A stretch of DNA of 64,000 bases from Planctomycetota bacterium. GTDB lineage: Bacteria; Planctomycetota; B15-G4; SIAN01. Each line of letters opens with the position of its first letter. Position 1 is the stretch's first letter. Where the stretch lies: assembly GCA_031409275.1 (NCBI GenBank), contig JANNXA010000051.1:192001-256000 (forward strand), in the 5' to 3' direction. Below the pieces are notes generated by a model. That model did no database searches. It saw only the letters and a list, made by a program, of their open reading frames with translations, and was not told where the DNA came from. A program made the translations under genes and the position numbers. Shown one piece after another: positions 25,133 to 44,679 of the stretch.

Positions 25133-25198
25133 GGATCGATCTCACGCCGCGACCGCACGCCGCGGTTGCCGGGGCGTGGAGAGGCCAAAAGGGCGGGG

Positions 25199-25207
25199 AG
25201 TCTAGCA
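25199..25207 (-). promoter_or_regulatory. Extended -10 promoter (TGcTAGACT) upstream of the PpiD-like gene
   Basis: TGn-TAnnnT match about 67 nt upstream of ATG 25132. Confidence 0.4.
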
Positions 25208-25295
25208 CCCCCCGGGGGGAAGTCGCGCCCGCAGCCGGACGAGCCGCTCGGTTCGCGGCGGCGCAACGCAGGGGAACCGGGCCGCGGACGAGCGG

Positions 25296-27075: not shown

Positions 27076-27139
27076 GTTCAAGCGGAGGCGCACACTACCC
27101 GCAGCGCGCCGCCGCGACGGTGGAGGGCGCGGTGGACCG

Positions 27140-28648
27140 TCAGTGGAATCGCAGGAGCCGATCGATGCCCAGGCTCTTGCAGCGCGAGCACGGGATCATC
27201 TTGTCCTCGCCCCCGCGCTCGAAGTAGCGGATGACGCCGGTACCGACGCACTGCACGCAGGCGCGCGCCTCGACCTTCATCACCTTGACGGCCGCGTCGT
27301 GGTCGGCCCACCACGCGAGCAGGTACTGGATGCGCTCGTCGGTGCTGGTCGCGGTCCACCACTCGTCGTCGGTGGGCGGAACATCGGCGATCTCCGGCCC
27401 GCGCTTCTCCGGCTTCTTCTTGTTGCCCTTGTTCTTGGCCGCCTCCTCCTGCTCCTTGCGCTTGGCCTCGAGGATCTTCTTGATGCGGTCGAGGTAGTCG
27501 GCGCCGCTCGCGCTGTCGTCGCCCGCGTTCGGATCGGCCTTCTTCGCAGTGGGATCCTCGGCCACGAGCCCCTTCTGGATCGCCTCGATCGAGCCGAGCG
27601 TGAAGGTGCCGGCGCCGTAGTTGGCGTAGTGCGGCGAGCCGGTCATGCGCTCCGGATCCTGCCATTGGGCGAGGACCTCCTTCGCATCGACGCCGAGCTG
27701 CTTGGCGGTCGCCTCCGCGGCGAGGTTGCTGCCCTCGAGCTCGATGCGCTGGCGCGCCTGCTTGAGACCGATCCCCGCCTCGGTCGCGATCTGGCGCGCG
27801 ACGCGCTCGGCGTGGACGAAGAAGTGGACGATCGTCTCCTGCTTCAGCCACTTCTCGCGCTGCTTGGCGATGACGCGCCGCGACTTCTCGAACTCGGCGC
27901 GCAGACCCGATCCCGGCTTCTTGGTGAGGAAGGCGTCGATCAGCGTGAGCGCCGCGTCATAGCGCTCGCGCTGTGCGAAGCGTTGCGCCTTGGCGAGCTC
28001 GCCGGAATCCTCGCTCGACTCGAGGCGCAACGTCGCCCGCTTGCTCTTGCCTTCGATGATGTCCGCCTTGAAATCCGGTTCAAGCTCGCTGACCCGCGCG
28101 AGGTGCTCCTTGGTGCGCGCCCAGAGCTGCAGGCTCTCGCAGAAGAGCGCGAGGTTGTAGTGGTCGAGCGCGCTCTGCGGGTTCTTCGCCGCGAGCTCCT
28201 GCGCGTAGAGCGCCTCGCCGTCGTAGACATCGAGCGCGTCGACCTGCACCGGCGTGATCGAGCGCACGTTGCTGCGGTTGAACTCCCAGGTCTGCACCCG
28301 TTGGCGCAGCTTGAAGGTCTGGGTGCCCTGCTCGACGATGATCCCGGTGTACTCCTGCCCGCCGACGAGGCGCACCTGCATCGCCTCGACCAGCACCGTC
28401 TCGGGCTCATCAGGCAGGTAGCCGCGCGAGGCTCGCAGGCGCCGCGCATCCTCCGGCGCCATCTGATCGAACGCGAGATCGAGCAGCGCCCCGTCGTCGA
28501 CGCGGCGCGCCTTCACGCCTTTCGCCTCGTCGAACTCGAGGACCTCGATCACCACCTCGGTGCCGACCTTGAGTCGCACCACCTCGGGCCCGCCATCCCG
28601 CGCCAGCAGCGCGACGCTCGCCAGTACGATCGAAACGAAGCTCGTCAT
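27140..28648 (-). CDS. Exported protein with SHD1-like/beta domains, TPR helices and a C-terminal CxxCxGxG..CxxC knuckle
   Basis: Signal-like N-terminus; DGALLDLAFDQMAPED; HYNLALFC...L.....H....ELEPD; CVQCVGTG...CSRCKSLG. Confidence 0.75.
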   Translation of the reverse strand: MTSFVSIVLASVALLARDGGPEVVRLKVGTEVVIEVLEFDEAKGVKARRVDDGALLDLAFDQMAPEDARRLRASRGYLPDEPETVLVEAMQVRLVGGQEYTGIIVEQGTQTFKLRQRVQTWEFNRSNVRSITPVQVDALDVYDGEALYAQELAAKNPQSALDHYNLALFCESLQLWARTKEHLARVSELEPDFKADIIEGKSKRATLRLESSEDSGELAKAQRFAQRERYDAALTLIDAFLTKKPGSGLRAEFEKSRRVIAKQREKWLKQETIVHFFVHAERVARQIATEAGIGLKQARQRIELEGSNLAAEATAKQLGVDAKEVLAQWQDPERMTGSPHYANYGAGTFTLGSIEAIQKGLVAEDPTAKKADPNAGDDSASGADYLDRIKKILEAKRKEQEEAAKNKGNKKKPEKRGPEIADVPPTDDEWWTATSTDERIQYLLAWWADHDAAVKVMKVEARACVQCVGTGVIRYFERGGEDKMIPCSRCKSLGIDRLLRFH

Positions 28649-28702: not shown

Positions 28703-29161
28703 TCACTTCATCGACCAGAGGCGCGCGGCATCGACCTTCGCCGAGCGCAATCGCGGCAGCACCCGCTCCAACTTCTGGGTGCGCACTCTGCCGCCTTGTT
28801 TCCAGCTCACTTCGACGACCAGGAGGAAGAGCCCCCCTCCCGGCGCGGCGCGAACGTTCCATCGATAGCTCAGTTCGGGGCGCCCGGGCACCGGCTGCGG
28901 CGCGGCAAGCTCCGGCAGCGCGCCGTTTCCGTCGGGCGCCTGCTCGGCGAGCTCCCGCGCCGCGAGCAGCAGGACCTCCTCGGCCGCATCGGCGGCGAGC
29001 GCCATCGACTGCGAATCCTGGTGCAGGCGCGTACCGGTCGACAGCAGTGCCAGCACGCTGACGATGCCGACCAGGAAGATCGTCAGCGCCGCCATCACCT
29101 CGAGCAAGGTGAAGCCGGCGGCGGAGCGGCGGCGGCAAGAGACGCTCGCTGGCGCGCTCAT
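28703..29161 (-). CDS. Minor (pseudo)pilin, GspI/PilV-like
   Basis: RRRSAAG|FTLLEVMAAL class III signal peptide; ~150 aa with YRW.V and VEVSW strands. Confidence 0.85.
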   Translation of the reverse strand: MSAPASVSCRRRSAAGFTLLEVMAALTIFLVGIVSVLALLSTGTRLHQDSQSMALAADAAEEVLLLAARELAEQAPDGNGALPELAAPQPVPGRPELSYRWNVRAAPGGGLFLLVVEVSWKQGGRVRTQKLERVLPRLRSAKVDAARLWSMK

Positions 29162-30390
29162 CGGCGCTCTCCGCGATCGTCGCGCGGCATCAGGTCCCCG
29201 CGACCACACGACAGCGCGATCGTCCGCTCGAAGCGTCGCCCGGTCAGCACCTTGGTGCCCGCGAGGTGGATGCTCGGCGCGGTGCCGTAGAGCCCGCGGC
29301 GCGTCAGCAGCAACGTGCTGCCGTCGCTTTCCGCGACCTCGACCCACTCCTGCCCGAGCTTCAGGACGCGCGCGTCGGTCCCGAGCTTCTTCAGGTAGCG
29401 CCCGTTTTGAACGTCGACGCGCAACGTGCCCGTCGACGCCGGCACGTCGCTGGCGAGCTCCGCCGAAGGCGACTCGCCGGGTGGCGGCGCCACCACCAGC
29501 GTGATGCGCACCGCACTCGGGAAGACGTCGTCATCGGCCAGAGCGCGCGACGTCGGCCCGCGCCCGTGCCGGAATCCGCTGAAGCCCTCGCCCGCCGGAA
29601 GCAATCCGCGCGTCGAATCCCACAGCGCGAGCGGTCCGCCCGCATCCGGCCCTGCCGCGAGGTCGCGGACGGTGTCGTCGATGAAGGCCAACGAGAAGAG
29701 CAGCACGTTCTCGGCGAGCGGCTCGAGCGGCGCGCGCGCCAGCCCGCCATCGTCGGCCAACGCCTGCGCGAAGAGCGAGTCGGGCCCGCCCGGCGGCGAC
29801 ATCAGGGCACGCCACAAGACCATGCGCCCTTCGTAGCCGGGACGCGGATCGGGCTGCGGAACGAGCGCCTCTTCGACCAGCCCTTCGGTGGCGAAGAAGC
29901 GCGCGTCGGGCGAGTCGATGGAGCCGACGTAGGGAACGGCGCCCGCCACGCCCGGCACCCGATCGTCAGCGGCGTTGCCGCCATTGGCGATGTCGATGCC
30001 CGCGCGACGCAACTGCGGGTGGGCGCGCTCCTCGACGAGCTGGCGAACGAAGACGAGCCGCTGCGCCTGGAAGTCGCGCGTCGAGTCGCCATCGGCGTCG
30101 AGCGTGATCATGTCGCAATAGAACTTCACCCGCGGCTCACCGTCGCCGCCGTCGACCGACGCGGCGTGGCGCAGTTCGTTGCCGAGCCGATCGAGCAGCG
30201 CCGCCGCCTGCTCGCTCTCGTCGCGGCCGCGCTCGCCGTTGTTCCACAAGTCGAGCCCGCCGCCGAGCACTTGCAGCACCATCCCGGCCAGGCCGAGGAA
30301 GATCGCCATCGCGGCGAGCAGCTCGACGAGCGTGAGGCCGGCCGCGCGACGCCGCGCCGAGCGTGAGGAACATGAGGAGCGCGGCGCCAT
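29158..30390 (-). CDS. Minor (pseudo)pilin, GspJ/PilW-like, with inserted beta module
   Basis: RRRAAG|LTLVELLAAMAIF; L...LR.A; LAENVL.F, P.AVRITL and RFERTI.L typical of GspJ. Confidence 0.85.
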   Translation of the reverse strand: MAPRSSCSSRSARRRAAGLTLVELLAAMAIFLGLAGMVLQVLGGGLDLWNNGERGRDESEQAAALLDRLGNELRHAASVDGGDGEPRVKFYCDMITLDADGDSTRDFQAQRLVFVRQLVEERAHPQLRRAGIDIANGGNAADDRVPGVAGAVPYVGSIDSPDARFFATEGLVEEALVPQPDPRPGYEGRMVLWRALMSPPGGPDSLFAQALADDGGLARAPLEPLAENVLLFSLAFIDDTVRDLAAGPDAGGPLALWDSTRGLLPAGEGFSGFRHGRGPTSRALADDDVFPSAVRITLVVAPPPGESPSAELASDVPASTGTLRVDVQNGRYLKKLGTDARVLKLGQEWVEVAESDGSTLLLTRRGLYGTAPSIHLAGTKVLTGRRFERTIALSCGRGDLMPRDDRGERR

Positions 30391-33300
30391 CAGCGCGACT
30401 CCTCATGCCGAAGCACGACGCGGTCGGCGAGGTACTCGACGGCGACTGCCTCGAGCAACGGCGCGCGCTTCCACGAGTTGCGCGCGAACTCGACCGGATC
30501 GAATGCCCCCTCGCGGTAGTCGACGTTGAAGCGGACGCGCAACAGGTCGCCCTGCCGATCGAGGAGGTTGGGTTTCTCGCGCGTTCCGGGCGAATCGAAG
30601 ACGAAGAGGTCGGGGTCGAGCGCCGGGTCGCCAGCGAAGTTGCCGCGTCCCTGCACGCGTACGGTGGCGATGAGGCGGGCGAGCGGATCGCCCTTCGACT
30701 CGCTCCAGGTCAGCGCGTGGTAGAGGCCGCGTCGCGCGGCCACCTGCAGCTCGAGCGTCGCGAGTTCGGGGATCTCGCAACGATCCTGGTAGCCGTCGGC
30801 GTAGCGGTAGGGCCAGAAGAAGACGACGCTGTCGGCCGCATGCGTCATCACCGGGGTGCCGTAGCGACCGCGGAAGGCCGCATCGCCCGTCGTGCGCGAG
30901 CTCCTGCCCGTGGGATCGTCGAGGTAGGTCGGCACGTAGAGCGACGCCGGCCCGCCGTTGCCGGCGCGGCCCGAGTAGGCGAGCACTTCCTGGTCGATCA
31001 TCACGCAGCCGTGCGGCGGAAAGCCGGCCGGATCGGTCAGCGCGATCTGCTCGTCGCTGGTCGACATGCCGCCAGCGAGGCGCGTCATCACCAGCCACGG
31101 CAGGACGTAGCCCGTCTCGCCCGGGCCGTGGTAACCCGTGTCTCCGCCGAAGCGCAGGCGGCCATCGGCGGCGATCTGCTGCACCACCGGCTGCCCGAGG
31201 TTGCGCTCGCCGCCGATGATGAACTCGTCGCCGAACTGCCAGACGCAGGCGTCCTGATGCAGCGAAACGGTCGCGCCGATCTGGCCGAACTGATCATGCG
31301 GGAAGCGCAGCAGGTCATCGGCGATCTCGAAGCGATCCGATTCGGTCGCGGCGATCTCGCGATTCAAGACGTGCATGCCGTGGGCGAAGATCGGCTGCGG
31401 ATCCTCGGCGGCGAAGATCCGGACCTCATCGACCTTCGCGCCGTCCCCGCCGCCGCCTCCGCCACCGGCGCTGCCGCCGACGGTCAGTTCGCTCGCCCCG
31501 TCCCAACGGCTCGGCAGCTCGCCCGACGGAAACTTCAGGATGCGCGCGAAGTTGCGCGAGTCGGAAGAGAAGGTGAGGTTCGCGACGATGTTGGTCGCGT
31601 TCGTGTTGGCGATGCCGAGACTCGGCGGGACCACGAAGCGCGTCGCGGCCGACTCGGCCAACAGCGCGACGTGGCATTCGCCCGCCCAGTCCTCCGCGCT
31701 GTCCTGCGACCACGCGTAGTTCAGGAAGTGGCGCTCGGGGCGCTCGTTGAAGGCGCCGACGATCGTGATCTCGTCGTAGCGACCGGGTTTCGGTCCGCTG
31801 CGGGCCACGCGGAAGACGGGGTAGACGCTCTCACCGCTGCCGTGCTTCTTGTCCTTCGCGCCGGTGTCGAGCACGCCGCGAAACGCGAGCGCGTGCGGAG
31901 GCGAGTTGCCAAGGCGCATGTCGGGATCGCCGCCGAGGAGGTTCTCCTGATTCAGCGCCTCGACGAAGTCGTCGTAGGCGGACTGTCCCAACTTGAAGTT
32001 GCCGGGGCTCGCGGCGATGGCGTAGAGGTAGTCGGTGGTGTTGAGGCTGGGGTCCCACGTGTCGGAGCGGCCGCTCGGACGGTTGAAGCCGCACGCGACC
32101 TGCTCGGCGGCGAAGAGGCGCTTCGCATCGGAGCGCAGCAGGTTCATCGCACCATTCTGGTCCTGCACGATCGAGTCGTAGCGGATCCACTCGGTCGGAT
32201 CGAAGACGCCGTCGCCGCTGGGCGACCCGATCTGCGCCATCTCGCAGCGGTCCTCGGCGCCGGTGACCTGTTCCGGCACGAGCAGCGCCGTCTTCACGTT
32301 GCCGGTGACGACGACGCTGAGCGGAACCACCAGCGTGGTGAACTCGGCGGGAACGTAGTCGGCGAAGACGCGCTTGTTGGGGGCGACCACGAACGCGTGG
32401 CGCTCGCAGAAGTGGAAGACGGTGTTGGTGTTCGGCGCTGCGGTCGCCGAGAACTCACCGAGGTCGGTGTTCGCGAGCTCCGCGGCCACCACTTGCCCGC
32501 GCCGGACGTTGGTCAGCTGAGTGCCGTCGAAACCGCCGTAGTGGATGATCTCCACGCCGTTGACCCAACTCTTGGTCGTGGTCTTGAACGAGTCGAGCTG
32601 GCCGGCCTGGTTGTTCTGGTCGTCGCGCGGGGTGAGCGTGCCGAAGTAGTAGCCGATCAGCGCCGCGTAGCCGCCCCCCTTCGAGAGCGGTCCATCGGCG
32701 GGCAGCTTGCCGCCGTCGAGCGCGCTGACGCCGATGGCGTTGACGTCCGCGTCGAAGCCGCGGCCGAGGTTGATCGGCTGCGGTGGACCGCCACCGCCGC
32801 CGCCACGCTGCTGCACGTCCATCTCGATCTGGACCTGCGCCATGCTGGAGGCGACTTTGGCTACGCCCCACGCGGGCAACCCGTCGGCGCCCAGCGTCGC
32901 GCTGCCCGCGGGCACATCGGTGACGAGGCGCGCGGAGTAGCCGTAGAGCTCGACTCCTTCGCTGCTCGGATGGCTGACCCCGGTGGCGCCACCGCCGCCC
33001 GATCCCGACTGCTGCTGCAGCGAGAGCGCCGGTCGCAATCCGCCGAAGTGGTTCTTGTCATCACGCGACACGGTGAAGGTCGAGCCGCTCACCGCGCTGT
33101 ACTCGACCACCTCGTTGCCGACCCGCACCGCGCCGCGCGGCGGGAACTTCGCCGTGCCGTCGGCCAGTCGCTTGACGTCGACAGGGATGCGCGCGGTCCC
33201 TTGCGTCGAAGCGGTGAAGCTGCCGGAGAGGCGCGTGTAGTGCGACCACTTGCCGCGCGGCTTGCCATCGACGAAGAGCGCCATCTGGCCGGCGCGATTG

Positions 33301-35459
33301 CCGCGACAGAAGGCGGTCACGTGGTACCAGGTGTCCGCTTCCAGCACGAGCCCATCGGTGAAGTCGTAGACGAGCTTCGACGTGTAGAGGTCGTCCTGCG
33401 ACGCGCGCAGGAACGCATCGTTCACCTCGAACTCGAGCCGCGACTTGACGAAGCGCAGCCGCACGCGATCGGAGAGGTCGGGGTTGCTCGCCTGAGCGTT
33501 GCACTTCCAGTCGAAGAGCGTCTGTTCGCCGCCGAGGTCGCGGCCGGGGTTCCACCACATCGAGACGCCGAACGGTCGCGGTCGCTCGACGCCCGACACG
33601 TTCTGGGAGATCGCGACGCCCGGATTGCTGCCGTCCGGCTTGAAGCTCTGCGGCCCTTCGGAGAGGCGCCAACCTTCGGCGTCGGTGGAGACGATGTCAC
33701 CGCGGCGACCGTCGAAGTGCCAGGTGCGGTCGAAGTTCACGGCCTGCAGGTCGTACCACGCCGTGACCAGCCGAGCGCCGCTGTCGGTCACCTCTTCGGA
33801 CGGGAAGCGCGAGCGCGGCGCCGACATCGCCAGCAAGCGGGTCGGCGGATCGGCGGCGCCGAGTCCGCCGCTGAAGAAGTTGAGGTTCTCCGGAGCGGTC
33901 GTCCAGCCGCGCGCCATGCGGTTCAGCCGCCACGGCTCGTCGAAGTCGCGCTGCGTCTTGAAGAGCCGCACGCTGCGGCCGGCACCCGCGGTCGCCACCA
34001 TCTCGCGCACGAAGGCGCGTGCTCGCTCGCGGCCGTTCAGCTCGAAGTTGAGGCTCGCGGCGGTGCGCACCTCGACGAGCCCATCGCTCGCGTAGCAGAA
34101 GGGGGCCGTGCCGTACTCGAGGTCGTAGCAGCCCGAGTGCTCGGCGTTCAGCAGGATGGCGAGCCGCTGCTCGCCTTCGAGGTTCTTCTCGCGTTCCACC
34201 ATCGAGTCGAGCAGCGTGATCAGCTCGCGCATTCCAGGCAGAGGCCGCGCGCGCTCGATGCGCTCGGCGACCCGCTCGGCCGCGGCGCGATTGACCTCGC
34301 GCGTGGCGCCGCGCAGCTTCAACCCCTCCATCAGCAGCACCAGCGTCTCGCGCGAGGCGCTGTTGATGTTCACCGCATGCGGCAGCAGGAACTCGACCTG
34401 CGCCTGTCCCGCCGCGGCGTCGATCAGCAGCGGCATCTCGAGCTGCAACGACGCGCCGTCGTCGCGCTGGCTGCTGCGCAGCACGATGCCGTAGTCGCTG
34501 CGCCCGCCGAAGGCGGTGACCTTCGCCAACGTGCCGCGACCGGCGAACTGCCCCTGCCCGATGCGCAGCTCGCTGCTGGTGCCGCTGGTGATCTCCGACA
34601 GCACGCGCTGCGGGTTGCCGAAACGGGCGCGATTGCCATCGAGCGCGTCGACCGTCGCGAACTGTTCGAGGCGGGCGCGCGCCTCGACGCTCAGCGCACC
34701 CTGGCCGAGGCGTTCGATGGCCAGCGCGTGGAGCGGCGTGTCGAAGCGCGACTCCTGGCCCTGCACGGCCTTGTAGAGCCAGTTCGCCACCATCCAGGCA
34801 CGGAAGTCGAGGACATCGGTGCCCGCGTCATGTTCGCGCGGCTCGAGGTTCATCGTGGCCGGCATCCACACACCGGGCACGACCGCCGGACGGCGCAGGT
34901 CGAAGACGCTGCTGCCTTCCTTGCGTGCGTAGTAGGTGATCTCGCCGTCGATCCAGAGGAAGCCCGAGTCCTGCAGGAAATCGCCGTCGGCCAGCCGCAC
35001 CTGCTTGTCCTCGGGCGTCAGCTTCGACGAGAGCGTCGTCGCCATTCCCAGCAGTCGCGCCACCAGGAAGAGATTGGCGGCGTTCAGGTCGATGCGGCCC
35101 GACTGATCCTCGATCGCCGCGGAAAGTAGGCGGCCGCGCGGCCCGAGGTCCTCGATGCCCAGCAGGCGCGCCGTCGCCTCGACGTCGATCGTCATCTCGT
35201 CGGCCGCGTCGCTCCAGGGCGTCTCGTCGCGATCGGGAGCCGTTTCTCCCATGTGCGTCAACGCGAGGTCGCGCACCGCCAACGCGGAACGACGCGCTTC
35301 ATCGTCGCCGACGCGGAAGGCGACGCCGCCCTGCTCGTGGCGCATCGACAAAGCGAACGGGATCGCCACCGAGATCAGGCAGACCAGCACCGCAAGCACC
35401 AGCGGCAGCGCCACGCCGCGCTGGTCGCGAGATTCGTTCATGAGCATGCTCCGGATCAC
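30390..35459 (-). CDS. Giant GspK/PilX-like minor pilin with LamG-like domain and repeated beta modules (~1690 aa)
   Basis: QRG|VALPLVL (no Glu5, K-type), EDQSGRIDLNAA and VNINSAS GspK motifs; LamG elements SMWWNP, WYHV, LFVDG, VDEVRI; start may be 35447 or 35441. Confidence 0.85.
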   Translation of the reverse strand: MIRSMLMNESRDQRGVALPLVLAVLVCLISVAIPFALSMRHEQGGVAFRVGDDEARRSALAVRDLALTHMGETAPDRDETPWSDAADEMTIDVEATARLLGIEDLGPRGRLLSAAIEDQSGRIDLNAANLFLVARLLGMATTLSSKLTPEDKQVRLADGDFLQDSGFLWIDGEITYYARKEGSSVFDLRRPAVVPGVWMPATMNLEPREHDAGTDVLDFRAWMVANWLYKAVQGQESRFDTPLHALAIERLGQGALSVEARARLEQFATVDALDGNRARFGNPQRVLSEITSGTSSELRIGQGQFAGRGTLAKVTAFGGRSDYGIVLRSSQRDDGASLQLEMPLLIDAAAGQAQVEFLLPHAVNINSASRETLVLLMEGLKLRGATREVNRAAAERVAERIERARPLPGMRELITLLDSMVEREKNLEGEQRLAILLNAEHSGCYDLEYGTAPFCYASDGLVEVRTAASLNFELNGRERARAFVREMVATAGAGRSVRLFKTQRDFDEPWRLNRMARGWTTAPENLNFFSGGLGAADPPTRLLAMSAPRSRFPSEEVTDSGARLVTAWYDLQAVNFDRTWHFDGRRGDIVSTDAEGWRLSEGPQSFKPDGSNPGVAISQNVSGVERPRPFGVSMWWNPGRDLGGEQTLFDWKCNAQASNPDLSDRVRLRFVKSRLEFEVNDAFLRASQDDLYTSKLVYDFTDGLVLEADTWYHVTAFCRGNRAGQMALFVDGKPRGKWSHYTRLSGSFTASTQGTARIPVDVKRLADGTAKFPPRGAVRVGNEVVEYSAVSGSTFTVSRDDKNHFGGLRPALSLQQQSGSGGGGATGVSHPSSEGVELYGYSARLVTDVPAGSATLGADGLPAWGVAKVASSMAQVQIEMDVQQRGGGGGGPPQPINLGRGFDADVNAIGVSALDGGKLPADGPLSKGGGYAALIGYYFGTLTPRDDQNNQAGQLDSFKTTTKSWVNGVEIIHYGGFDGTQLTNVRRGQVVAAELANTDLGEFSATAAPNTNTVFHFCERHAFVVAPNKRVFADYVPAEFTTLVVPLSVVVTGNVKTALLVPEQVTGAEDRCEMAQIGSPSGDGVFDPTEWIRYDSIVQDQNGAMNLLRSDAKRLFAAEQVACGFNRPSGRSDTWDPSLNTTDYLYAIAASPGNFKLGQSAYDDFVEALNQENLLGGDPDMRLGNSPPHALAFRGVLDTGAKDKKHGSGESVYPVFRVARSGPKPGRYDEITIVGAFNERPERHFLNYAWSQDSAEDWAGECHVALLAESAATRFVVPPSLGIANTNATNIVANLTFSSDSRNFARILKFPSGELPSRWDGASELTVGGSAGGGGGGGDGAKVDEVRIFAAEDPQPIFAHGMHVLNREIAATESDRFEIADDLLRFPHDQFGQIGATVSLHQDACVWQFGDEFIIGGERNLGQPVVQQIAADGRLRFGGDTGYHGPGETGYVLPWLVMTRLAGGMSTSDEQIALTDPAGFPPHGCVMIDQEVLAYSGRAGNGGPASLYVPTYLDDPTGRSSRTTGDAAFRGRYGTPVMTHAADSVVFFWPYRYADGYQDRCEIPELATLELQVAARRGLYHALTWSESKGDPLARLIATVRVQGRGNFAGDPALDPDLFVFDSPGTREKPNLLDRQGDLLRVRFNVDYREGAFDPVEFARNSWKRAPLLEAVAVEYLADRVVLRHEESR

Positions 35460-36532
35460 TGCACATCCCCGAGCAGACCGACACGAATCCAGGTGGAGAT
35501 CGGCTTCTTGTCCGGCTCGCTGGCCGGCGTCAGAAGTTCGAGTTCGGCGGGCGCCTGATGGAATCGCGGATCGAGCGCGCCATCCGGCCCGAAGCCCACC
35601 AGGCGGTTGCCGGTCCCAAGCTCCATGTCGCGCAGCTCCTGGGAATCACCGGCGAAGATGCCCCACTTGAGTTCGTCGACCACGAATCCCGCGGCCTCGT
35701 CGTAGCTGCCGATCAGCAACGAGGTGCCGGGATCGGGCAGGAAGGGCGCGCGTACCGCCAACGCGAGTTCCGCGACCACGGCGTCGTCCGCGGTGAGCCG
35801 CAGCTGCGCGCCGTCGAAGGTCACCGCCAGCTTGACGAAACGGCCCGCGATCAGGATCGGCTCGGTACTCGAGACCGACTGGAACGCGGGCCGCGGATCG
35901 CCCGCCGAATCGCGCACCTCGACCTGCACCTGGACGCTGACGCCGCCATCGGCGGTCGCCTGCACCAGCAGCGACTTGCCCTTGGTGAAGAGGACCTGGC
36001 TGCGACGCTGATCGACGGCGAGGAAGGCCTCGAGCGCGAAGCCGTCGCGCGACTCGAAGGCCGGAGTGGGCAGCAGCTCGATCCACGACTTCTCGCGATC
36101 GGAGAGGCGGACCGCCTTGCCGACCACTCCTTGCGCGAACTCCTCGAGCCCCGCACCGCGACCGTCGGTTGGCCAGCCCGAGAGGTCGGTCGCTTCGAAG
36201 TGCCAGCCCGCGATGGTCTTGCGGCCGACCGCGCTCACCTGCGGCCACGTTTCGTCGTTGCCCGCCTCGAGGCGCACGGTCGCCGGCGCGTTCTCGGCGA
36301 TGGCGAACAGGCGCGCCTGGCGCAGCGCATCGAGGACGGCGCGGCGGGCGATGTCGCGGCTCGGGATGCTGCGGCGGAAGGCGCCGACCGAAATGCCCAT
36401 CAGCACGCCGACGATCGCCAGCACCACCAGCATCTCGATCAGCGTGAAGCCGCGCGGGGCGGCACGCCGTCCCGTGGCAAGCGGCGCCACGCGCGGGCGC
36501 GGCAGCAGCGGCCTAGAAGTTGGTGACGTCAT
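35456..36532 (-). CDS. Minor (pseudo)pilin, GspH/FimT-like, with inserted LamG-like domain
   Basis: RG|FTLIEMLVVLAI; LRQAR..AI; W.FE..G..GKA, F.LEAF, LAVTFDG..LRL..D, LLIG..VDELK; C-terminal F.PDG. Confidence 0.85.
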   Translation of the reverse strand: MTSPTSRPLLPRPRVAPLATGRRAAPRGFTLIEMLVVLAIVGVLMGISVGAFRRSIPSRDIARRAVLDALRQARLFAIAENAPATVRLEAGNDETWPQVSAVGRKTIAGWHFEATDLSGWPTDGRGAGLEEFAQGVVGKAVRLSDREKSWIELLPTPAFESRDGFALEAFLAVDQRRSQVLFTKGKSLLVQATADGGVSVQVQVEVRDSAGDPRPAFQSVSSTEPILIAGRFVKLAVTFDGAQLRLTADDAVVAELALAVRAPFLPDPGTSLLIGSYDEAAGFVVDELKWGIFAGDSQELRDMELGTGNRLVGFGPDGALDPRFHQAPAELELLTPASEPDKKPISTWIRVGLLGDVQ

Positions 36533-37142
36533 CCTCGGTCCCGAAGATGCGGTCGCTGCCGGCCGAGATCAGCTGGTAGCGATCGGCATTGGCCCAACCA
36601 CCGGTCTTCTCCGACTTGCGCGCGGTGACGCGCTGCTCGGGATCGTTCGGATCGGCAGGATCCGCCATCAGGTAGCGCGCTTCCTTGCCGTAGCAGTCGG
36701 GCGTGAAGTAGGCGATCGGGTTGCCCCATCCGTCGACCACTTCCATCAGCTTCGTGACGCCCGCGTCGCGGTGGTAGGGCGTCGCGGTCGCATCGTCGTC
36801 GGTGTTCTCGATCGACGCGTCGCGGACGTTGTTCCCTTCCGGATAGCTCTTGGCGTGCAGCGCCACGTAGAGCGCCTCGGCCCCCTCATTGAGGTCGTTG
36901 TCGGCGCGCACTTTCTGCGGCGCCAGCATGCACGGAGGCGGGCCGCCCTTCTTCGTCTCGTACGACGTGATCAGGATCTCGAGCTCGGCGATGGTGGCCG
37001 AGGTCTTGGTGACGTAGCCCTGCTCCTTCTGACGGCCGAAGGCGAAGATCGCGAGGCTCATCAGCAAGCCCAGGATCGCCAGGACGGCCAGCACTTCGAT
37101 CAGGGTGAAACCCTGCATTCGTCGCCTTCGCTGCGGTCCCAT
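36513..37142 (-). CDS. Major (pseudo)pilin, GspG-like
   Basis: RRRRMQG|FTLIEVLAVLAILGLL; Y....G.PP; DGWGNP..Y and YQLISAG.D..FGTEDD..NF (T2SS G C-terminus). Confidence 0.9.
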   Translation of the reverse strand: MGPQRRRRMQGFTLIEVLAVLAILGLLMSLAIFAFGRQKEQGYVTKTSATIAELEILITSYETKKGGPPPCMLAPQKVRADNDLNEGAEALYVALHAKSYPEGNNVRDASIENTDDDATATPYHRDAGVTKLMEVVDGWGNPIAYFTPDCYGKEARYLMADPADPNDPEQRVTARKSEKTGGWANADRYQLISAGSDRIFGTEDDVTNF

Positions 37143-37186
37143 CGCCGAGCTCCTCTGCTGCACCCCGATCGCGCGTCGCGGCGTCG

Positions 37187-39898
37187 TCACTGCGCCAGGA
37201 ACTCGATGCGGCGCGCCTTCTCGAGCTTCACGTCGCACGTCTTGCCGCCGGCCGCGGCGCCGAAGAAGAGCGCCGAGATCTGCTGGCGCGTGCGCCCCTT
37301 CCAAGGGGCCATCTCGACCGGCGCTCCGGCCGGCGTGCCGTCGATCAGGAACTGGAATTTCTCGTTGCCGCGTTCCTGCCGCCGCAGCGTGATGCGGACC
37401 ACGTCGCCCGCCTTCGCGGTGTGCGTGCCGATCTTCACGAAGGCCTCGTCGCCGACGTGCTCGCATCGCTGCAGCAGGACGCTGCCATCGACATCGAGCG
37501 CCAGGGTCAACGCCGCGCGCAGTCGCGGCGCCTGGCCGGTCGCGCCGGCCATGTAGTGGACGAGCCCCATGCCCATGCGCCCCTGATGCGTCGGCGCGAA
37601 CTGGCACTCGACCTCGAGCTCGTGGAAGAGCGACAGCTCGACGTCGCGCGCCAGGTAGGTCCAGTTGGCGATGTCGTTGCCGGGCTTCTGCACTCCGGAG
37701 ATGCGCACGTTGCCGGGCGGCGTCGACTTGAGGTCGAGACCGAAACGCGTCTCCGCGCTCCAGCCGTTGCCGACCTCGGCCCACTGCAGCGTGTCCTCCC
37801 AGATCTGCTTGCTCTCGAGGTCGAGCACGGCCGCCAGCCAGCGCGTCGCGTAGGCGACGTCGTCGACCGGGGCGTTCTTCAGCTCGTCTTTCACCTGCAC
37901 CCACAGTTGCTGCGCCGTCGCGCTCTCGCCCGCCTCGTAGGCGCAGTAGGCCAGGCCGAGCAACGATTCGCTGGTGGCGCGCTTGGCCTGCAGCGCCTCG
38001 AAGAGCGTGCGCGCACGGCCGACGTCGCCGGCGACGAGGTGGGCGTGCGCCAGCAGGAGGCGCGTCTCGTCGCGATCCTCGCGCGCCAGCGACTCCTCGA
38101 AGTAGCGGCGGGCGTCCGCGCCGGCGCCAGCTTGCAGCGCGACGAAACCGAGCTCGTTGAAGAGGTCGGGGAAGCCAGCGCCGAGCTCGAGCGAGCGGCG
38201 CAGCTCGACGCGCGCCCCCTCCAGATCACCGGACTGCCGCAGCAGTCGGCCGAGGAAGTAGCGCACGAAGGCGTCATCGGGTGCACGCGCCGCCGCGTCG
38301 CGCGCACGCACGATCGCGTCGTCGAGATGGCCCGTCACCGAGCGAAGCTCCGCTTCGGCGACGGTCGCAGCGCCGGCCAGCAGTGGATCGACGAGCGCCA
38401 CTCGCTGCAGGTCGAGGCGGGCCTGATCGAAGGCACGCAGCCGCGTGCGCACGATGCCGAGGCCAAGCAGCGCCTCCGCCTCGGCGCGCGGCGCGTGGAC
38501 CGCGGCCAACAGCCGCGCGTAGCTGCCCTCGGCGTCGGTGAAGCGGCCGAGCGCGAAGTCGGCGGCGCCTTCGAGACGGAATCCCAGGAGCGACTGCGCG
38601 TCGATCTTGAGGATGCGCTTCGCCTCCTCCAGAGCGCGCGGCGCATCGCCCCGCTCGAGCAAGGCGGCGCCACCCTCCGCGATCACTTCCATGCGTTGCT
38701 CGGCGGTGCTCGACGACTGCTCGGCCTGGCTGAATTGCTGCAGCGCCAGTTCGACGCTCTCCGGCGAACCTTCGTCGAGCAGCGCGCGACCGTACGCCAC
38801 GCGCGCTTCGCGTTCGGTCGGGAAGCGTTGGACGGCGGCCGCGAGGCCGGCGAGGGCGCCCGAACGGGCGCCGGCGCGCTGCAACCAGCGCGCGTGGCGA
38901 ACGGCGAGGCCGGCGCTTTCGATCCCGGCCGCGCGCGCCTTCTGCAGCACCTGCAACTCGGCCTCGAAGTCGAGCAGCGCCGCGCGCGCGTCAGCGAGGA
39001 GCTCGTAGGTGCGCGACTGCCGCGGATCGAGGTCGATCCACTTCTCGAGCCGCGCGACCGCGCTGCGGTAGCAGGCCGCGTCTTCGGCACCGAGCGCCAG
39101 TGCGAGCGCCGCCGCATCGAGGAGGCGCGGGAGGTTCGCGCTGCTCCACTGCGACTCCGGCAGCGCCCGCAACGCGAGCTCGGCGCGATTGAACGGGGTG
39201 TTCGCGAAGTGGATGCCGTCGGGCTTCAACCGGTCGCGTTCCAGCGAGCCGCCGATCATGACGCGGTTGGTCTTCGGGTCGATGCGCGTGAACTCGATCT
39301 TCTCGGTCAGTCGCTCGAGCAGGCGGAACTTGTCCGCATTCTTGATCACGACGTACCACGGGCGCGGATCGGTGGCGAGGTCGAGCCAGTCGAAGCGCTT
39401 CTGGAGCTCTTCGTCGACGCTGCCGGCAGTGGACGACGCGACCGCGGGTGCCGCCGCAGGTGCTGCCGCCGGCGCGGCCGCGGACGCTGCGTCCGCCGTG
39501 TCGCCCGCGGGTGCCGTGTCGGCGGGGAACGCGTGCGGCGTCACTTGTGTCGGCTGGCGATAGAGGCCAAGTCGCGCCAGCGCGGCCGACGGCGAAAGCG
39601 GCGGCGGGACGTAGCTTGGGTCGCGCAACGGCGGGCGCTCGAGCTCGGCGGGCGGCATGGGCAGCCAATCGCGCGGCTCGCGGAAGACCTCGCGTCCGCT
39701 GCGCGCCCAGTCGCTGGCGCGCAGCGCGCCTCGCGGCGCGCGAGCAACGTCGGTGTACGCCAGCGCCTCGGCAGCGGGCGCTTTGCCGTTCTGCACGATC
39801 GGGGTCTTGAAATCTTCCGTCAGCAGCAGCGTCGCCAGCAGACCCGTCAGACCGACGCTGCTGAAGAAGAAGAGCTGCTCTTTTCCTGGGCGCGCCAT
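37187..39898 (-). CDS. Membrane-anchored multi-TPR protein with C-terminal beta-sandwich-like domain
   Basis: N-terminal hydrophobic segment, Pro/Ala-rich linker, many TPR-like repeats, beta-rich last ~200 aa; translationally coupled to the PilO-like gene. Confidence 0.8.
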   Translation of the reverse strand: MARPGKEQLFFFSSVGLTGLLATLLLTEDFKTPIVQNGKAPAAEALAYTDVARAPRGALRASDWARSGREVFREPRDWLPMPPAELERPPLRDPSYVPPPLSPSAALARLGLYRQPTQVTPHAFPADTAPAGDTADAASAAAPAAAPAAAPAVASSTAGSVDEELQKRFDWLDLATDPRPWYVVIKNADKFRLLERLTEKIEFTRIDPKTNRVMIGGSLERDRLKPDGIHFANTPFNRAELALRALPESQWSSANLPRLLDAAALALALGAEDAACYRSAVARLEKWIDLDPRQSRTYELLADARAALLDFEAELQVLQKARAAGIESAGLAVRHARWLQRAGARSGALAGLAAAVQRFPTEREARVAYGRALLDEGSPESVELALQQFSQAEQSSSTAEQRMEVIAEGGAALLERGDAPRALEEAKRILKIDAQSLLGFRLEGAADFALGRFTDAEGSYARLLAAVHAPRAEAEALLGLGIVRTRLRAFDQARLDLQRVALVDPLLAGAATVAEAELRSVTGHLDDAIVRARDAAARAPDDAFVRYFLGRLLRQSGDLEGARVELRRSLELGAGFPDLFNELGFVALQAGAGADARRYFEESLAREDRDETRLLLAHAHLVAGDVGRARTLFEALQAKRATSESLLGLAYCAYEAGESATAQQLWVQVKDELKNAPVDDVAYATRWLAAVLDLESKQIWEDTLQWAEVGNGWSAETRFGLDLKSTPPGNVRISGVQKPGNDIANWTYLARDVELSLFHELEVECQFAPTHQGRMGMGLVHYMAGATGQAPRLRAALTLALDVDGSVLLQRCEHVGDEAFVKIGTHTAKAGDVVRITLRRQERGNEKFQFLIDGTPAGAPVEMAPWKGRTRQQISALFFGAAAGGKTCDVKLEKARRIEFLAQ

Positions 39899-40692
39899 CA
39901 GGGCTTCTCCTCGAAGTCGCTCGGCTCGCCATCCCGTTTCTCGATCTGCAGCGCGGTCACCGACAGGTCGAGCTGCAACATGCCGAGCTCTCCCTTCACG
40001 GGCTTGACGCGCGTCTGGTCGATCGCGAGGAAGGGCGCGCTCGAACGCGCCGCCCCATCGACGACGGCGGTCAGCAGCGAACGGATCGCCTTCTCGCCGC
40101 CGATCACCTCGAAGCGGACGCGCACCTCGGAAAGGAAGCCGGCCGCCTTGCCGCGGGCACGCGAGTCGTCCTCGATCTGGATCGCACCGATGCGACGGAC
40201 GCCGGCGCTGATCGACTCGATGACCACCTGCTGGACCACGTCGAGCGCGATCAGCTGCCGGCGGATCTCCTCCGGCTCGGTCGGCGCCATGTCCTTCAGG
40301 CCGAGCGCCTCGGGCACGCGGATGTCCTGTCGCTCGGCCGCCTCGACCAGCGCGCGCGACGTCTCGCGATGACGCTTGAAGAAGAAGCCGCGCGGATTGG
40401 CCTCGCCCGCGGGGACCTGGAAGGCGGCGCCCGGCGCGTGGCGCATCGTCTTCACCAGCTCGGCGTAGCGCTCGCGCAGCGAATCGACATCTTCCTGCAC
40501 GTCGCGCACGAGGTCGTCGCCGATGCGGTCACTCTTCCCGAGCCCTTGCGCGGTGCGCGCCGAAGCGAAGACCACGCCTTCGTAGTCCCACTGCGACTGC
40601 ACCACGCCGCGGCCGATCAGCAGCAGCAGCAGCGCGCCGGCGACGATGAGGATGAAGCGCTTGTGTTGCGCCCAGAGGTCGGCGAGGTCCAT
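39898..40692 (-). CDS. PilO/GspM-like alignment protein
   Basis: N-terminal TM, coiled segment, ferredoxin-like C-terminus (VRVRFEV.G....R.LL, FL.I....V, LDLSV); directly follows PilM-PilN. Confidence 0.7.
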   Translation of the reverse strand: MDLADLWAQHKRFILIVAGALLLLLIGRGVVQSQWDYEGVVFASARTAQGLGKSDRIGDDLVRDVQEDVDSLRERYAELVKTMRHAPGAAFQVPAGEANPRGFFFKRHRETSRALVEAAERQDIRVPEALGLKDMAPTEPEEIRRQLIALDVVQQVVIESISAGVRRIGAIQIEDDSRARGKAAGFLSEVRVRFEVIGGEKAIRSLLTAVVDGAARSSAPFLAIDQTRVKPVKGELGMLQLDLSVTALQIEKRDGEPSDFEEKP

Positions 40693-42374
40693 CAGCGTCC
40701 CCCTGACGTCGTGCGAGTCGAGGCGCCCTTGGCTGCCGGTGCAGCCGCTTCGGCTTCGGGATCGGGTGGCGGCGCCGCGAGCCAGTTGAGGTTCAGGCGG
40801 TACTCGATCTGCCCGCCCTTTGCCGTCTGGGTCTCGACGACGTCCGCGGGCCGGAAGTCGCTTTCGGCTCCCAGCGCGCGCACCGACTCGACGAATGCCG
40901 CGTAGCTCTCATCGACGGAACGCGTCCCGCGCGACTTGCCGGCGCCATCGACAACGATCAGCGGCCGCTTGGTGGCGCGGTCGCGTGCGGCGCTCTTCTG
41001 TTCCTGCAGCTCCAGCGTGAAACCGGCGACCCACAGGTCCTCCGGCAACTCGCTGGCCAGCAGGCCGAGCGCCCTCACCACGCTGTCGCCGGCCGCCTTG
41101 CGTTTCTCCAGCACGTCGACTTTGGCGGCGAGTTCGCTGCGCTCGGTGCGCAGCTTCTCGAGGAGGCTCGCGTTGTTGGCGCGCTTGCGCGACTCGTTGG
41201 TGATGCGCCCGGCAGCGGCGGTGGCGACATGGAAGCGCTCCTGGCACTTCCACGCGTAGAGGCCGAGGTAGGCCAGCACGACGACGAGCGCGCCGACCGT
41301 GAAGGCGTGCTTGCCCTTCCATTCGCGGCGGCGCTTCTCCGCGCCGGTCAGCAGCTCGACCGACCACGACTCCGAGTCGGCGCCCATCACCGCGAGGCCG
41401 AGCGCGACCGCCATGTCGCGGCTGCCGGCCCCTTCGACGGCGAGTCCGGCGTCGGCGAGCGGATCGAAGAGCTGGACCGGGACGCCGAGGCTTCCGGCGA
41501 GGTACTCGTCGAGCCCCTTCATCGCGGAGCTGCCGCCGGTGAGCCACACCTTGGAGAGGTTCAGCTGGTTCAGCTGCATCTGCGACTTCGCGAGCTGCAG
41601 CGTCGACTGCACCATGCTGAAGAGACGGCCGGCGGCACCTTCGAGCGCGTAGCTCAGCTTCTCCGCCTGCGGGGTGAGGCCCGAACGCTTGTCGCGCGGA
41701 CGCAGGTCGCCAAGCTCGAGCTTGAGGCTCTCCGCCTTCGCCTTGCTGACGCTGAACTGCTCGGCGATGGCGTCGGTGAGCGTCTCGCCGCCCGTGCTGA
41801 CGCTGCGCGCGTAGAGGAGATCGCCATCGCGCAGGAGCGCGAAGTCGGACGAGTTCTTGCCGATCGACACGATCAGCACGTCGCCGCTGGTCGCCGGCCC
41901 GAACACCCGGAAGGCGTGGAAGAGCGCGATCGCGTTCGGCGTGAAGTGGCGCGCCGAGAGGCCCGAAGTTTCGAGTTCGGCCGAGCGCTCCTCGATGCGC
42001 TGCTCGCGCGACAACGCCAGCAGGACGATGTCGTCGTTGGTGAGGTCGGCGCGCGATGGCATCACGTTGAAGTCGGCGGCGAGCGTGTCGCCCGACTGGT
42101 TGCGGATCTCGTCGAGCTCGAAGGCGACGATCTTCTTCAGCTGGAAGTCCGCGACCGGCGGCACTTGCTGGTACTTGATGACCAGGTCCTTGCCGGTGAG
42201 GCCGAGCACGGCCTGCTTCGACTTGAAGCCGGCGGAGCGCAGTGCGCCGCCGAGTTCGCCGCCGGCAGGAAGCGCGCACGCGCGCACCGGCACCAGCGCG
42301 CCGCCCTGCATTTCGACCTCGACGGCCTTGATGGTGGCGCTGCCTTCGTCGATCCCGAGTCCGCGCGCGCCCAT
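40692..42374 (-). CDS. pilM: PilM-PilN fusion protein
   Basis: LGIDEGS..IKAVE actin-like start, IG...S, GG..LTDAI...F.....AE.LK, VWLTGGSS...GL.EYL...L..PV..FDP, AVALGLA; then TM, coiled coil and PilN-like LP.DLWV..F segment. Confidence 0.85.
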   Translation of the reverse strand: MGARGLGIDEGSATIKAVEVEMQGGALVPVRACALPAGGELGGALRSAGFKSKQAVLGLTGKDLVIKYQQVPPVADFQLKKIVAFELDEIRNQSGDTLAADFNVMPSRADLTNDDIVLLALSREQRIEERSAELETSGLSARHFTPNAIALFHAFRVFGPATSGDVLIVSIGKNSSDFALLRDGDLLYARSVSTGGETLTDAIAEQFSVSKAKAESLKLELGDLRPRDKRSGLTPQAEKLSYALEGAAGRLFSMVQSTLQLAKSQMQLNQLNLSKVWLTGGSSAMKGLDEYLAGSLGVPVQLFDPLADAGLAVEGAGSRDMAVALGLAVMGADSESWSVELLTGAEKRRREWKGKHAFTVGALVVVLAYLGLYAWKCQERFHVATAAAGRITNESRKRANNASLLEKLRTERSELAAKVDVLEKRKAAGDSVVRALGLLASELPEDLWVAGFTLELQEQKSAARDRATKRPLIVVDGAGKSRGTRSVDESYAAFVESVRALGAESDFRPADVVETQTAKGGQIEYRLNLNWLAAPPPDPEAEAAAPAAKGASTRTTSGGR

Positions 42375-42375
42375 G

Positions 42376-44679
42376 TCAGCGCCCCTCCCCGTTCGCCCGT
42401 TCCGGTGCCACCGACTCGCCACGAGCCTCGCGCGCGGCGAGCGTGTCGGAGTAGCTGCGTTGCAGCTCCTCGAGCAGCTCGGCGGCGGTCGCGGCGCGCA
42501 GCGGCGCCGGCGCCTGCTGCGCCTGGTAGGCGCGCGCCAACCGCAGCAGTCGCGCCGCCTCCTGCTCGCGCCGCTCGCGCTCCATCCCGGCCGCCACCGT
42601 CTTCATCCGTTCGACGCGACGGCCGAGTTCGCGCGCCGCCTCGAGTCCTTCGGTCTGCGCCAGCAGCGCGTCCGCGCGCGCCAGCACCCGGCGGTAGTGA
42701 TCGAGGCTGCCGAGGAACTCGGCACCGATCGCCTCCGACTCGACCGCGGCGAGATCCGCCTCGAGCTTGGGAACGATCTCCGACTCGAGCTTGCGCGCCA
42801 ACTCGCCGCTCTTGTCGTCATGCGGCAGCCGCTCGCGCAACTCGCGCAACTTGGCGAGCGCCGCTCCGGCATGACCGCCGCGCCACTCCTCCTGCGCCTT
42901 CGCATAAAGGTCGCTCGCCTCGCGGCGTTGCGCCTCGAACCCGGCGCGCAACTCGACCGTCGTCGTCGTCGTGACGGAGAGTTCGAGGCGAAGCGCGTCA
43001 CCCCGGAGGACGCCGACCACCTTGCATGGCGGATCGAGCGCCAGCTCGAAGCGCTCGGCTGCAGCGCCGAAGAAGATCTCCTTCACGGCGTCGATTTCGA
43101 AGGCGCCGAAGCGTCGCTCGGTGCCCGCTGCGCCGCGCAAGGTGACGCCTTGAGCGGCCGTTTCGGGCGAAACCTGCGCGGCGAAGCCGGCGGCGTTGAA
43201 CGGCGCCGAACCGGGGTCGAGCGTGAGCGTCGTCCCCGACGCGGTGGCGCGCGCGGCAAACCCTCCGGGCGGCAGTTCGACGCGCGCGGCCGGCTGATCG
43301 CCGGCGGCAACGAGACCGCCTCCGAACGGGACGAACAGCTCGGCGAGCACCGCGTGGTGATCGACGAACCAGGCCCCTGGGCCGCGCGGCCGAAGGGTCA
43401 ATTCACCGAACGCCGTGGAATCCGTCGACGCGTTGCCCGGGCCGATCGCGAGATCGTCGAGCGCGACGCGACCGCTGCCGCGCGCGACGACGACCACTTC
43501 GACCGCCTTCGCCCAAGCGGGCGGCAGGAGGGTGGCGTTGAACGCCGCGAAATCGCCGCCGGACTGTTGCGCGACGATCACGCTCCACTCCAATGCGCTC
43601 TCGGCGTCGTCACCGCTGCGGAACCGCAGCGCAACGCTGCCGAACGCGCCGTCGTCGACCGCCAGCTGACCGGTCACTTGGAGCGGAGTCGGCGTTGCGA
43701 GCACCAGCTTCTGGCGCCGCGAACTGACGGCGCAGCCGTCGGCCACGTCCGCGGTCAGCGCGAAGCTGCCCGAGTGCGCACGGCCTCGGCGCGCAGAGAA
43801 TCCGTCGCCGAGTTCCGCGCCCCAGAGCGAGTCGACGCTCCCGGAATCCTCGAACGACCAGTCATCGACCAGCAGGGTTCCGCGCGGCGCCGGCGGCACG
43901 ACCCGACCACTCGTGGGCGGCGCGTCGCCCGACGCGCCTTTCATGAAGTACCACGTCGCCGCGCCGCCGACCGCGAGCACGACCCCGGCGAGGCCCACGA
44001 GCGCCCCCGCTTTGCTCTTCTCCGGCGGCAGCGCCGCGCGTGCCGGCGCCGATGCCGACGCGGCGTCGCCCCCGGTCGAACCCGTCAACGGCACCGCGCC
44101 GCGCTTCAGATCGACGAAGGTGAACTCATTGGCGCCGAGCCGTACGCGATCGCCGTGCGAGAGCGCCACCTCGGTGGTCACTTTCTGATCGTCGAGGAAG
44201 CTGCCATTGGTGCTGCCGAGGTCGCGCAGGACGTAGCCGTCGCCCTCGCGCACCACCTCGAGATGGACGCCCGAAACCTTGACGTCGATGAAGGCCACGC
44301 TGTTCTCGGGACGGCGCCCCAGCGTGGTGCGAGCTCCCGACAACGGCACGTCGCGGCCGGAGTGCTCGCCGGCCGTGAAACGGATCACGCAGTCGGCATC
44401 GCGAGCATGGAACGTCAGCGTGACGCCGCCCACGCGGATGCGGTCGCCGTCCGCGAGGAACTGCTCGGTGACCTTCTCGCCGTTCAGCAGCGTGCCGTTG
44501 CTGCTGCCGAGATCGCGCACGAGGTAGCCGTCGCCGCGCCGCTCGAACTCGCAGTGGCGCCGCGAGATCCCCTTGTCGTCGAGGACGAGTTCGACCCCCT
44601 CGACCCGTCCCACGACGAGTCGATCGCCTAGAACGACGTCGCGAGAGCCGTCGGGTCCCGAAATCACCAGTCGAGCCAT
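42376..44679 (-). CDS. Tandem FHA-domain membrane protein with extracytoplasmic CBM-like and helical domains
   Basis: Two FHA domains (GR..SRRH..DLGSSNGT; GR..SGVH..DLGSTNGS), TM helix, WSFE...W...AHSG.F CBM4/9-like start, TPR-like C-terminus; ATG 44679. Confidence 0.9.
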   Translation of the reverse strand: MARLVISGPDGSRDVVLGDRLVVGRVEGVELVLDDKGISRRHCEFERRGDGYLVRDLGSSNGTLLNGEKVTEQFLADGDRIRVGGVTLTFHARDADCVIRFTAGEHSGRDVPLSGARTTLGRRPENSVAFIDVKVSGVHLEVVREGDGYVLRDLGSTNGSFLDDQKVTTEVALSHGDRVRLGANEFTFVDLKRGAVPLTGSTGGDAASASAPARAALPPEKSKAGALVGLAGVVLAVGGAATWYFMKGASGDAPPTSGRVVPPAPRGTLLVDDWSFEDSGSVDSLWGAELGDGFSARRGRAHSGSFALTADVADGCAVSSRRQKLVLATPTPLQVTGQLAVDDGAFGSVALRFRSGDDAESALEWSVIVAQQSGGDFAAFNATLLPPAWAKAVEVVVVARGSGRVALDDLAIGPGNASTDSTAFGELTLRPRGPGAWFVDHHAVLAELFVPFGGGLVAAGDQPAARVELPPGGFAARATASGTTLTLDPGSAPFNAAGFAAQVSPETAAQGVTLRGAAGTERRFGAFEIDAVKEIFFGAAAERFELALDPPCKVVGVLRGDALRLELSVTTTTTVELRAGFEAQRREASDLYAKAQEEWRGGHAGAALAKLRELRERLPHDDKSGELARKLESEIVPKLEADLAAVESEAIGAEFLGSLDHYRRVLARADALLAQTEGLEAARELGRRVERMKTVAAGMERERREQEAARLLRLARAYQAQQAPAPLRAATAAELLEELQRSYSDTLAAREARGESVAPERANGEGR

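Follow-up and report, generated by a model that had tools for sequence, protein, structure and literature searches.

The stretch of DNA analysed here, in the following called the window, comprises 64,000 nucleotides of a Planctomycetota bacterium (assembly GCA_031409275.1, contig JANNXA010000051.1, positions 192,001 to 256,000) and harbors an operon for the scaffold and the pilins of a type IV filament. It consists of nine open reading frames (ORFs) on the minus strand, which abut or overlap and encode, in this order, a protein with two FHA domains and a transmembrane (TM) segment, a fusion of PilM and PilN (PilMN), a PilO-like protein, a TPR protein and the five pilins G, H, K, J, and I (Table 1). 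All nine are present with the order, the sizes and the spacing given in a preliminary description of this DNA, the intergenic spacing from the FHA gene to the gene of I being +1, -1, -1, +44, -20, -4, -1, and -4 nt. The domain labels assigned there hold as well, i.e., two Pfam FHA domains (E 7.7e-37), PilM_2 (E 1e-21), TPR, the N-methyl motifs, and LamG in H and K. As had also been noted, PilB/GspE, PilC/GspF, a secretin, and PilD have no match inside the window. To these nine genes we add a tenth one of no known family, because it follows the gene of I in 19 of 20 loci of the same order and in 24 of 40 loci of the phylum; its four-Cys motif is kept in 18 of 20 orthologs. The GC content is even across the region (about 0.69-0.72) and therefore the operon is not a recent island.

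Table 1. Genes of the filament operon, listed from the FHA gene onwards (positions within the window).
Gene product	Position	Strand	Length (aa)	Basis of the assignment
FHA-FHA-TM protein, large periplasmic region	42376..44679	-	767	Pfam FHA x2
PilM-PilN fusion (GspL/Amuc_1101-type architecture)	40692..42374	-	560	PilM/PilN profile matches, TM 357-375
PilO/GspM/Amuc_1100-like bitopic protein	39898..40692	-	264	TM 13-31, position after PilMN, weak matches
Membrane-anchored TPR protein	37187..39898	-	903	AlphaFold2 (AF2) model, fold matches
G, probable major pilin, GspG-like ends	36513..37142	-	209	N-methyl motif, C-terminal motif
H, GspH-like minor pilin with inserted LamG	35456..36532	-	358	N-methyl motif, LamG domain match
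K, giant GspK-like tip pilin	30390..35459	-	1689	Structure model, LamG, beta modules
J, GspJ-like minor pilin, C-terminal K-type beta module	29158..30390	-	410	N-methyl motif, J-K profile match
I, GspI/PilV-like minor pilin	28703..29161	-	152	N-methyl motif, N-terminal family match
Tenth gene, no known family	27140..28648	-	502	TPR-like middle, C-terminal CxxC...CxxC

The operon is old and widely conserved. Within the superfamily of type IV filaments it represents a variant and does not correspond to a standard type II secretion system (T2SS) or type IVa pilus (T4aP) with scattered genes. It is single-copy, and 39 of 40 relatives of the same order show a strong match to PilMN. Among 20 loci of this order picked for long contigs the nine-gene order is complete in 19, and the remaining one stops at a contig edge. 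For the phylum, a search of 301 genomes listed 150 matches, from which 40 loci were chosen across families; loci L071-L150 were left out of the synteny counts, as they overlap other genomes and end 10 kb after PilMN. The full order is found in 24 of these 40 loci, five are without K only, and the other 11 are truncated, partial or paralogous; the FHA and TPR genes stay linked to the others. The J profile matches 192 of the 301 genomes at a threshold of E<=1e-12, and 161 of them remain at E<=1e-25; family f8 has no match (0/15). Over half of the phylum sample thus carries the operon, a type IV filament system that is conserved but unclassified, and since orthologs are present in the cultured Engelhardtia mirabilis Pla133 and Rohdeia mirabilis Pla163, it is experimentally testable. 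Matches to an ATPase, a platform protein or a peptidase were found in none of the 140 loci scanned and a secretin in a single, paralogous one, which agrees with the earlier proposal that the core machine is supplied in trans. The operon had furthermore been suggested to be undescribed, and no account of it was found in the full-text literature searched, most subscription papers lying outside reach. Saltatorellota are described to encode type IV pili (bioRxiv 10.1101/817700), and the supplementary gene tables of that work may list some of the operon genes. The operons of families f29 and f55 lack K, but K was found elsewhere at E<=1e-175 in all four such genomes tested, so that the reading of K as dispensable was rejected. 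Together with the single copy and the occurrence in nearly all relatives, this makes the former designation "accessory" an overstatement. In one single-contig genome (G209) the operon genes are dispersed, J standing alone and K lying about 370 kb off, and several K-like paralogs of >1,000 aa are present. In the window, a peptidyl-prolyl isomerase-like gene, scpB, and a gene for a 707-aa PpiD-like protein (23009-27093) come next on the minus strand. Their synteny with the operon is frequently kept, and the isomerase gene and scpB usually come after the tenth gene.

The FHA protein has its TM segment at residues 224-242, and in both FHA domains the GR, SxxH, and NG residues, which serve phosphothreonine binding, are intact. 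The suggested tie to Ser/Thr phosphorylation signalling is nevertheless an overstatement, as the orthologs carry two, one or zero FHA domains by lineage. In all six family-f4 loci among L001-L020 the domains are missing, and the operon is still intact. The periplasmic part of the protein has a weakly CBM4/9-like beta domain (CBM_4_9 matches just 1 of 17 orthologs, E 0.015) followed by helical repeats, and its nearest neighbors in the ESM Atlas score 0.80-0.84, which is under 0.9 and a lead only. A single profile of PilMN matches PilM (E 3e-36) as well as PilN (E 1.6e-4, positions 348-469) of the Myxococcus structure 3jc8. The best NCBIfam match is Amuc_1101_fam, with 130 bits versus a cut-off of 650, and the GspL family gave no match to PilMN at E<=0.1. 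GspL has the same fused layout of PilM- and PilN-type domains. Since GspL shares this layout and the best family match is Amuc_1101, the fusion alone does not make a hybrid. The term "hybrid T4P/T2SS" therefore went too far, because GspL-GspM and Amuc_1101-Amuc_1100 are known to have this same architecture, in which a PilO/GspM-like gene comes after the PilM-PilN fusion. The PilO-like protein matches GspM_XpsM in 6 of 20 orthologs and Amuc_1100 in 3 of 20, in each case weakly (best E 0.002-0.004), and a search of its profile against PDB sequences found nothing. The TPR protein sits at the PilP/GspC position in the gene order. Its AF2 model (pLDDT 84.3) comprises a TM anchor, a Pro-rich linker, a small beta domain (160-232), a TPR superhelix, and a ConA-like sandwich, and residues ~697-903 match GH43 C-terminal and L-type lectin folds with Z 15-17. 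Lectin-fold domains, which had been described before as a decoration of the tip, are present on H, K, and the TPR protein. A homology of the TPR protein to the gene at the equivalent position of the two-secretin locus on contig C36 (see below) was rejected, as there is no match, and so was a homology to the tenth gene, with which it has a generic TPR match only.

Among the pilins, the giant K is the most conspicuous. Residues 1-850 were modelled at pLDDT 87.3, and the top two of 48,161 chains for this model are GspK (3ci0_K; Z 13.0, rmsd 3.5, 236 aligned) and XcpX (5vtm_X; Z 12.6), the GspK-fold match spanning residues 44-493. K therefore has a real GspK core. The model also contains a LamG domain and an inserted beta barrel, which matches phage tail and other proteins. 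The K profile found nothing among PDB sequences, and Foldseek of the model gave no PDB match at E<=0.001; XcpGHIJK came at rank 14. In up to 17 of 18 orthologs, a repeated beta module of K matches PHROG families of virion structural and baseplate proteins, and this module recurs once at the end of J (profile-profile probability 90%, E 1.4e-6). For K residues 1400-1689, the nearest entries in the ESM Atlas are unnamed phage proteins (0.88), again under 0.9 and a lead only. A GspK core with modules of phage-structural type is an unusual tip design. G has an invariant C-terminal motif S-x-G-x-D...D-D and a weak match to GspG structures, and it is ~65 aa longer than GspG; it reaches 42.9 bits with TIGR01710 (cut-off 88.85), and the T2SSG Pfam family is unmatched. 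The pilin trees, like those of PilMN, are quick ones and carry no bootstrap values; they place G outside the GspG group (support 86) and, with weak resolution, apart from the two PilA-like pilins of the genome. N-methyl motifs were detected on G, H, and I, the one of J being just below the cut-off, and the NCBIfam matches of H, I, and J are N-terminal only and all below cut-off.

The genome itself (92.9% complete) encodes five PilB/GspE ATPases, four PilC/GspF proteins, six secretins, and one PilD. A full T4aP cluster with its own PilM, PilN, PilO, PilQ, and PilA is located on contig C49 and includes the single PilD, whereas contig C52 has a T2SS cluster with the genes D-E-F-G-H-I-J. Two further clusters are complementary in their parts. 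Contig C29 (20600-26800) contains the motor genes PilB-PilT-PilB-PilC with no pilin, scaffold or secretin, and contig C36 (78916-96477) contains scaffold and secretins in the order PilMN-PilO-x-secretin-TPR-TPR-ExbB-ExbD-ExbD-sulfatase-secretin with no pilin and no ATPase. A lone secretin is present on contig C27. C29-type clusters are nearly universal in the phylum sample, and the C29 PilC seems to be without the usual N-terminal segment. Contig C55 (26000-37000) harbors a complete second T2SS, from D to an M-like gene, with lower codon bias and beside transposase- and terminase-like ORFs, and this system probably sits on a mobile element. In two relatives (L157, L167) the T2SS cluster has two tandem gspD secretin genes.

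As the resident T2SS cluster on C52 is incomplete, in that it ends at J or at the contig edge and K, L, and M are unmatched in 20 of 20 relatives, the operon might be a second pseudopilus with an L/M set for this T2SS, specialised for other substrates. The GspK fold of K and the GspG-type C-terminus of G agree with that, as does the presence of a GspE ortholog in 145 of the 161 operon-bearing genomes; moreover, no dedicated or clear GspM was found in the genome. However, a supply of the missing K, L, and M by the operon is weakened by stand-alone genes for GspK on contig C14 (~85800-87285), for a GspL-like protein on contig C51 (~366750-368530, ~110 kb beyond the window), and for a PDZ GspC-like protein on C49. 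A single-protein query recovered the stand-alone GspK from only 17 of 38 genomes, but it is present in 9 of 9 same-order genomes. All seven genomes of family f61 have orthologs of J and PilMN, yet no C52-type GspE at E<=1e-150, and the position of G outside the GspG group also speaks against a T2SS pseudopilus. We therefore regard such a role as unlikely.

Instead, we infer with middling confidence that the operon provides the scaffold and the pilins of a distinct type IV filament, for which the two-secretin locus of C36 type would supply the pore and the orphan PilB-PilT-PilB-PilC cluster the motor. The link between operon and secretin locus is new in this analysis, and co-occurrence and clustering make this pilin-less locus the likely best partner. 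The C36-type secretin marker (E<=1e-100) is present in 153 of the 161 genomes with a strong J ortholog versus 20 of 109 J-negative ones. Among the matches listed, the secretin locus lies 8-39 kb from PilMN, on either strand, in 19 genomes of seven families, which corresponds to 19 of 24 same-contig cases and to 19 of 88 core genomes; ~2 of 88 would be expected by chance from simple arithmetic, but kin are not independent. In two further families (G068, G111) the secretin locus adjoins displaced H-K-J-I or J, and in G112, G120, and G051 most genes along the stretch leading from the secretins to the FHA gene share one strand. The gap was read in three genomes and comprises, after the secretin, a HAD hydrolase, an amidotransferase-like gene, a TPR or other large protein, and a second FHA gene, followed by the operon. 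The motor on C29 was assigned by elimination among the ATPases: its PilB has an ortholog in 49 of 49 operon-bearing genomes tested, whereas an ortholog of the T4aP PilB on C49 was not found in 14 of these 49, two of them single-contig. Sister paralogs of PilMN in three families (f82, f35, f22) lie directly behind an Amuc_1098-like secretin. In their loci (L068, L215, L216, L218, L226, L229, L213) a secretin and a pilin are ahead, and in f82 these are preceded by H-K-J-I and a two-component pair. As a guide to the partner secretin these loci were rejected, since they are deep paralogs whose secretin is without ortholog in the genome studied here.

Several points weigh against this partnership. 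In most genomes operon and secretin locus are on separate contigs, in 5 of the 24 same-contig cases they are 270 kb to 2 Mb apart, and neither in the genome studied here nor in its order was a linkage of the two seen. The HAD hydrolase and amidotransferase genes between them look unrelated. Six of the seven linked families that the PilMN tree covers fall into one clade, so that the linkage may reflect one inherited arrangement. Furthermore, the secretin locus has a PilMN-PilO of its own and also occurs without the operon, namely in the 20 of 109 genomes mentioned above and in 62 of 109 at E<=1e-45, and the genome lacks orthologs of the secretins that accompany the sister PilMN paralogs. The C29 PilB is likewise found in 22 of 24 operon-negative genomes, and the T2SS GspE co-occurs with the operon almost as well as the secretin marker does. 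Finally, lectin folds do not in themselves show sugar binding. The lack of orthologs of the sister-paralog secretins would also fit a secretin-free periplasmic endopilus, which would push on or tether the envelope in the enlarged planctomycete periplasm and use the TPR and FHA proteins as its scaffold. There is no cis secretin in 139 of 140 loci scanned, and a tip of 1,689 aa might not fit through the channel of a secretin. Nevertheless, the strong co-occurrence and clustering with the TPR-secretins speak against an endopilus, and the adhesin-like tip domains would fit best outside the cell. It is thus distinctly unlikely.

For the distinct filament with the pore of the two-secretin locus, the following sequence of events can be assumed. 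PilD would cleave G, H, I, J, and K, whereupon I-J-K plus H would prime the filament and G would polymerise beneath them, with the TPR protein in the role of PilP/GspC. The two PilB, two PilMN, and two secretins may represent two sibling halves of one envelope apparatus, and the filament would exit via the secretin of the PilMN-PilO-two-secretin-ExbB-ExbD-ExbD locus. The LamG/lectin-fold and phage-tail-like tip domains may then bind polymers or surfaces, and retraction would draw the cargo to the secretin; this capture role is predicted because of the folds and by analogy to MUL2 of Akkermansia. The FHA domains would add an optional phospho-control of assembly. A bolder version is rather doubtful. 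According to it, the operon and the two-secretin ExbB-ExbD-ExbD locus derive from one ancestral super-cluster of ~45 kb and form a single, undescribed importer of Planctomycetota that spans the envelope. In this importer an ATP-driven filament with a lectin-bearing, phage-tail-like GspK tip would pull intact polymers or material of cells across secretins that a proton-driven ExbBD motor opens, under phospho-control by FHA. If true, this would be a new branch of type IV filaments coupling two types of motor (ATP and proton) and a candidate macromolecule-uptake system of deep-branching planctomycetes. Planctomycetes take up large polymers via an energy-dependent route tied to fibres and crateriform structures, which is described as uncharacterised (PMC5394234). 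The operon alone cannot explain uptake in every planctomycete, since it was not found in family f8.

The same hardware could also do another job, i.e., act as a Kil-like apparatus for contact-triggered attack or cell-cell interaction, with contact sensing via FHA and phage-tail-like docking. A type IV filament system rich in FHA proteins and divided between two clusters is the pattern of Kil (PMC8460266), several relatives have a second FHA gene just upstream of the operon, the genome contains 28 Ser/Thr-kinase motifs, and the K modules resemble phage structural proteins. However, family f4 keeps the operon intact without any FHA domain, genes for toxins, immunity or lysis are not conserved neighbors in the loci read, and the conservation over small and large genomes suits a housekeeping envelope role, which makes an attack function very unlikely. 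That the operon supplies alternative pilins and alignment proteins to the canonical T4aP on C49 can be largely refuted, the probability being minimal, because this pilus already has PilM, PilN, PilO, PilQ, and PilA and its PilB was not found in 14 of 49 operon-bearing genomes, even though PilM is the closest solved structure and the sole PilD belongs to the C49 cluster.

Compared with known systems, the operon resembles a T2SS in its five-pilin set with a GspK fold, in the GspL domain layout of PilMN and in the M-like partner. It differs in the order G-H-K-J-I, in a G of ~200 aa, in the 1,689-aa K with LamG and beta modules and in having no GspC; moreover, no match to GspE/GspF was found in the 140 loci scanned, and a separate ordinary T2SS with its own G, H, I, J, K, L, and C is present in the genome. 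With the alignment complex of T4aP it shares the actin-like domain of PilM and the coiled-coil/ferredoxin-like part of PilN. In contrast to T4aP, M and N are fused, the TPR protein replaces PilP, the pilins are T2SS-like, and the PilMN quick tree separates the operon protein from the canonical PilM of the genome. The Kil system of Myxococcus xanthus, which is Tad-like, is similar in being a type IV filament split over clusters with FHA proteins (PMC8460266). Kil is Tad-derived, whereas the operon has PilMN/PilO and T2SS-type pilins, and its proteins gave no match to the Tad/Flp families. For Akkermansia, the fold of Amuc_1100 and Amuc_1098 as PilQ have been described (PMC13119276), and the MUL loci mediate mucin transport, MUL2 being proposed for attachment (PMC13174399). 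Unlike MUL2 (Amuc_1098-1102), the operon scores far under the Amuc family cut-offs, has no cis secretin in the window or in the same-order loci, and adds the G-H-K-J-I pilins with the giant K, the TPR-lectin protein, the FHA protein, and the tenth gene. Like MUL2, it contains a PilM-like gene followed by a weakly Amuc_1100-like gene and has its motor outside the cluster, and the sister paralogs of its PilMN adjoin an Amuc_1098-like secretin.

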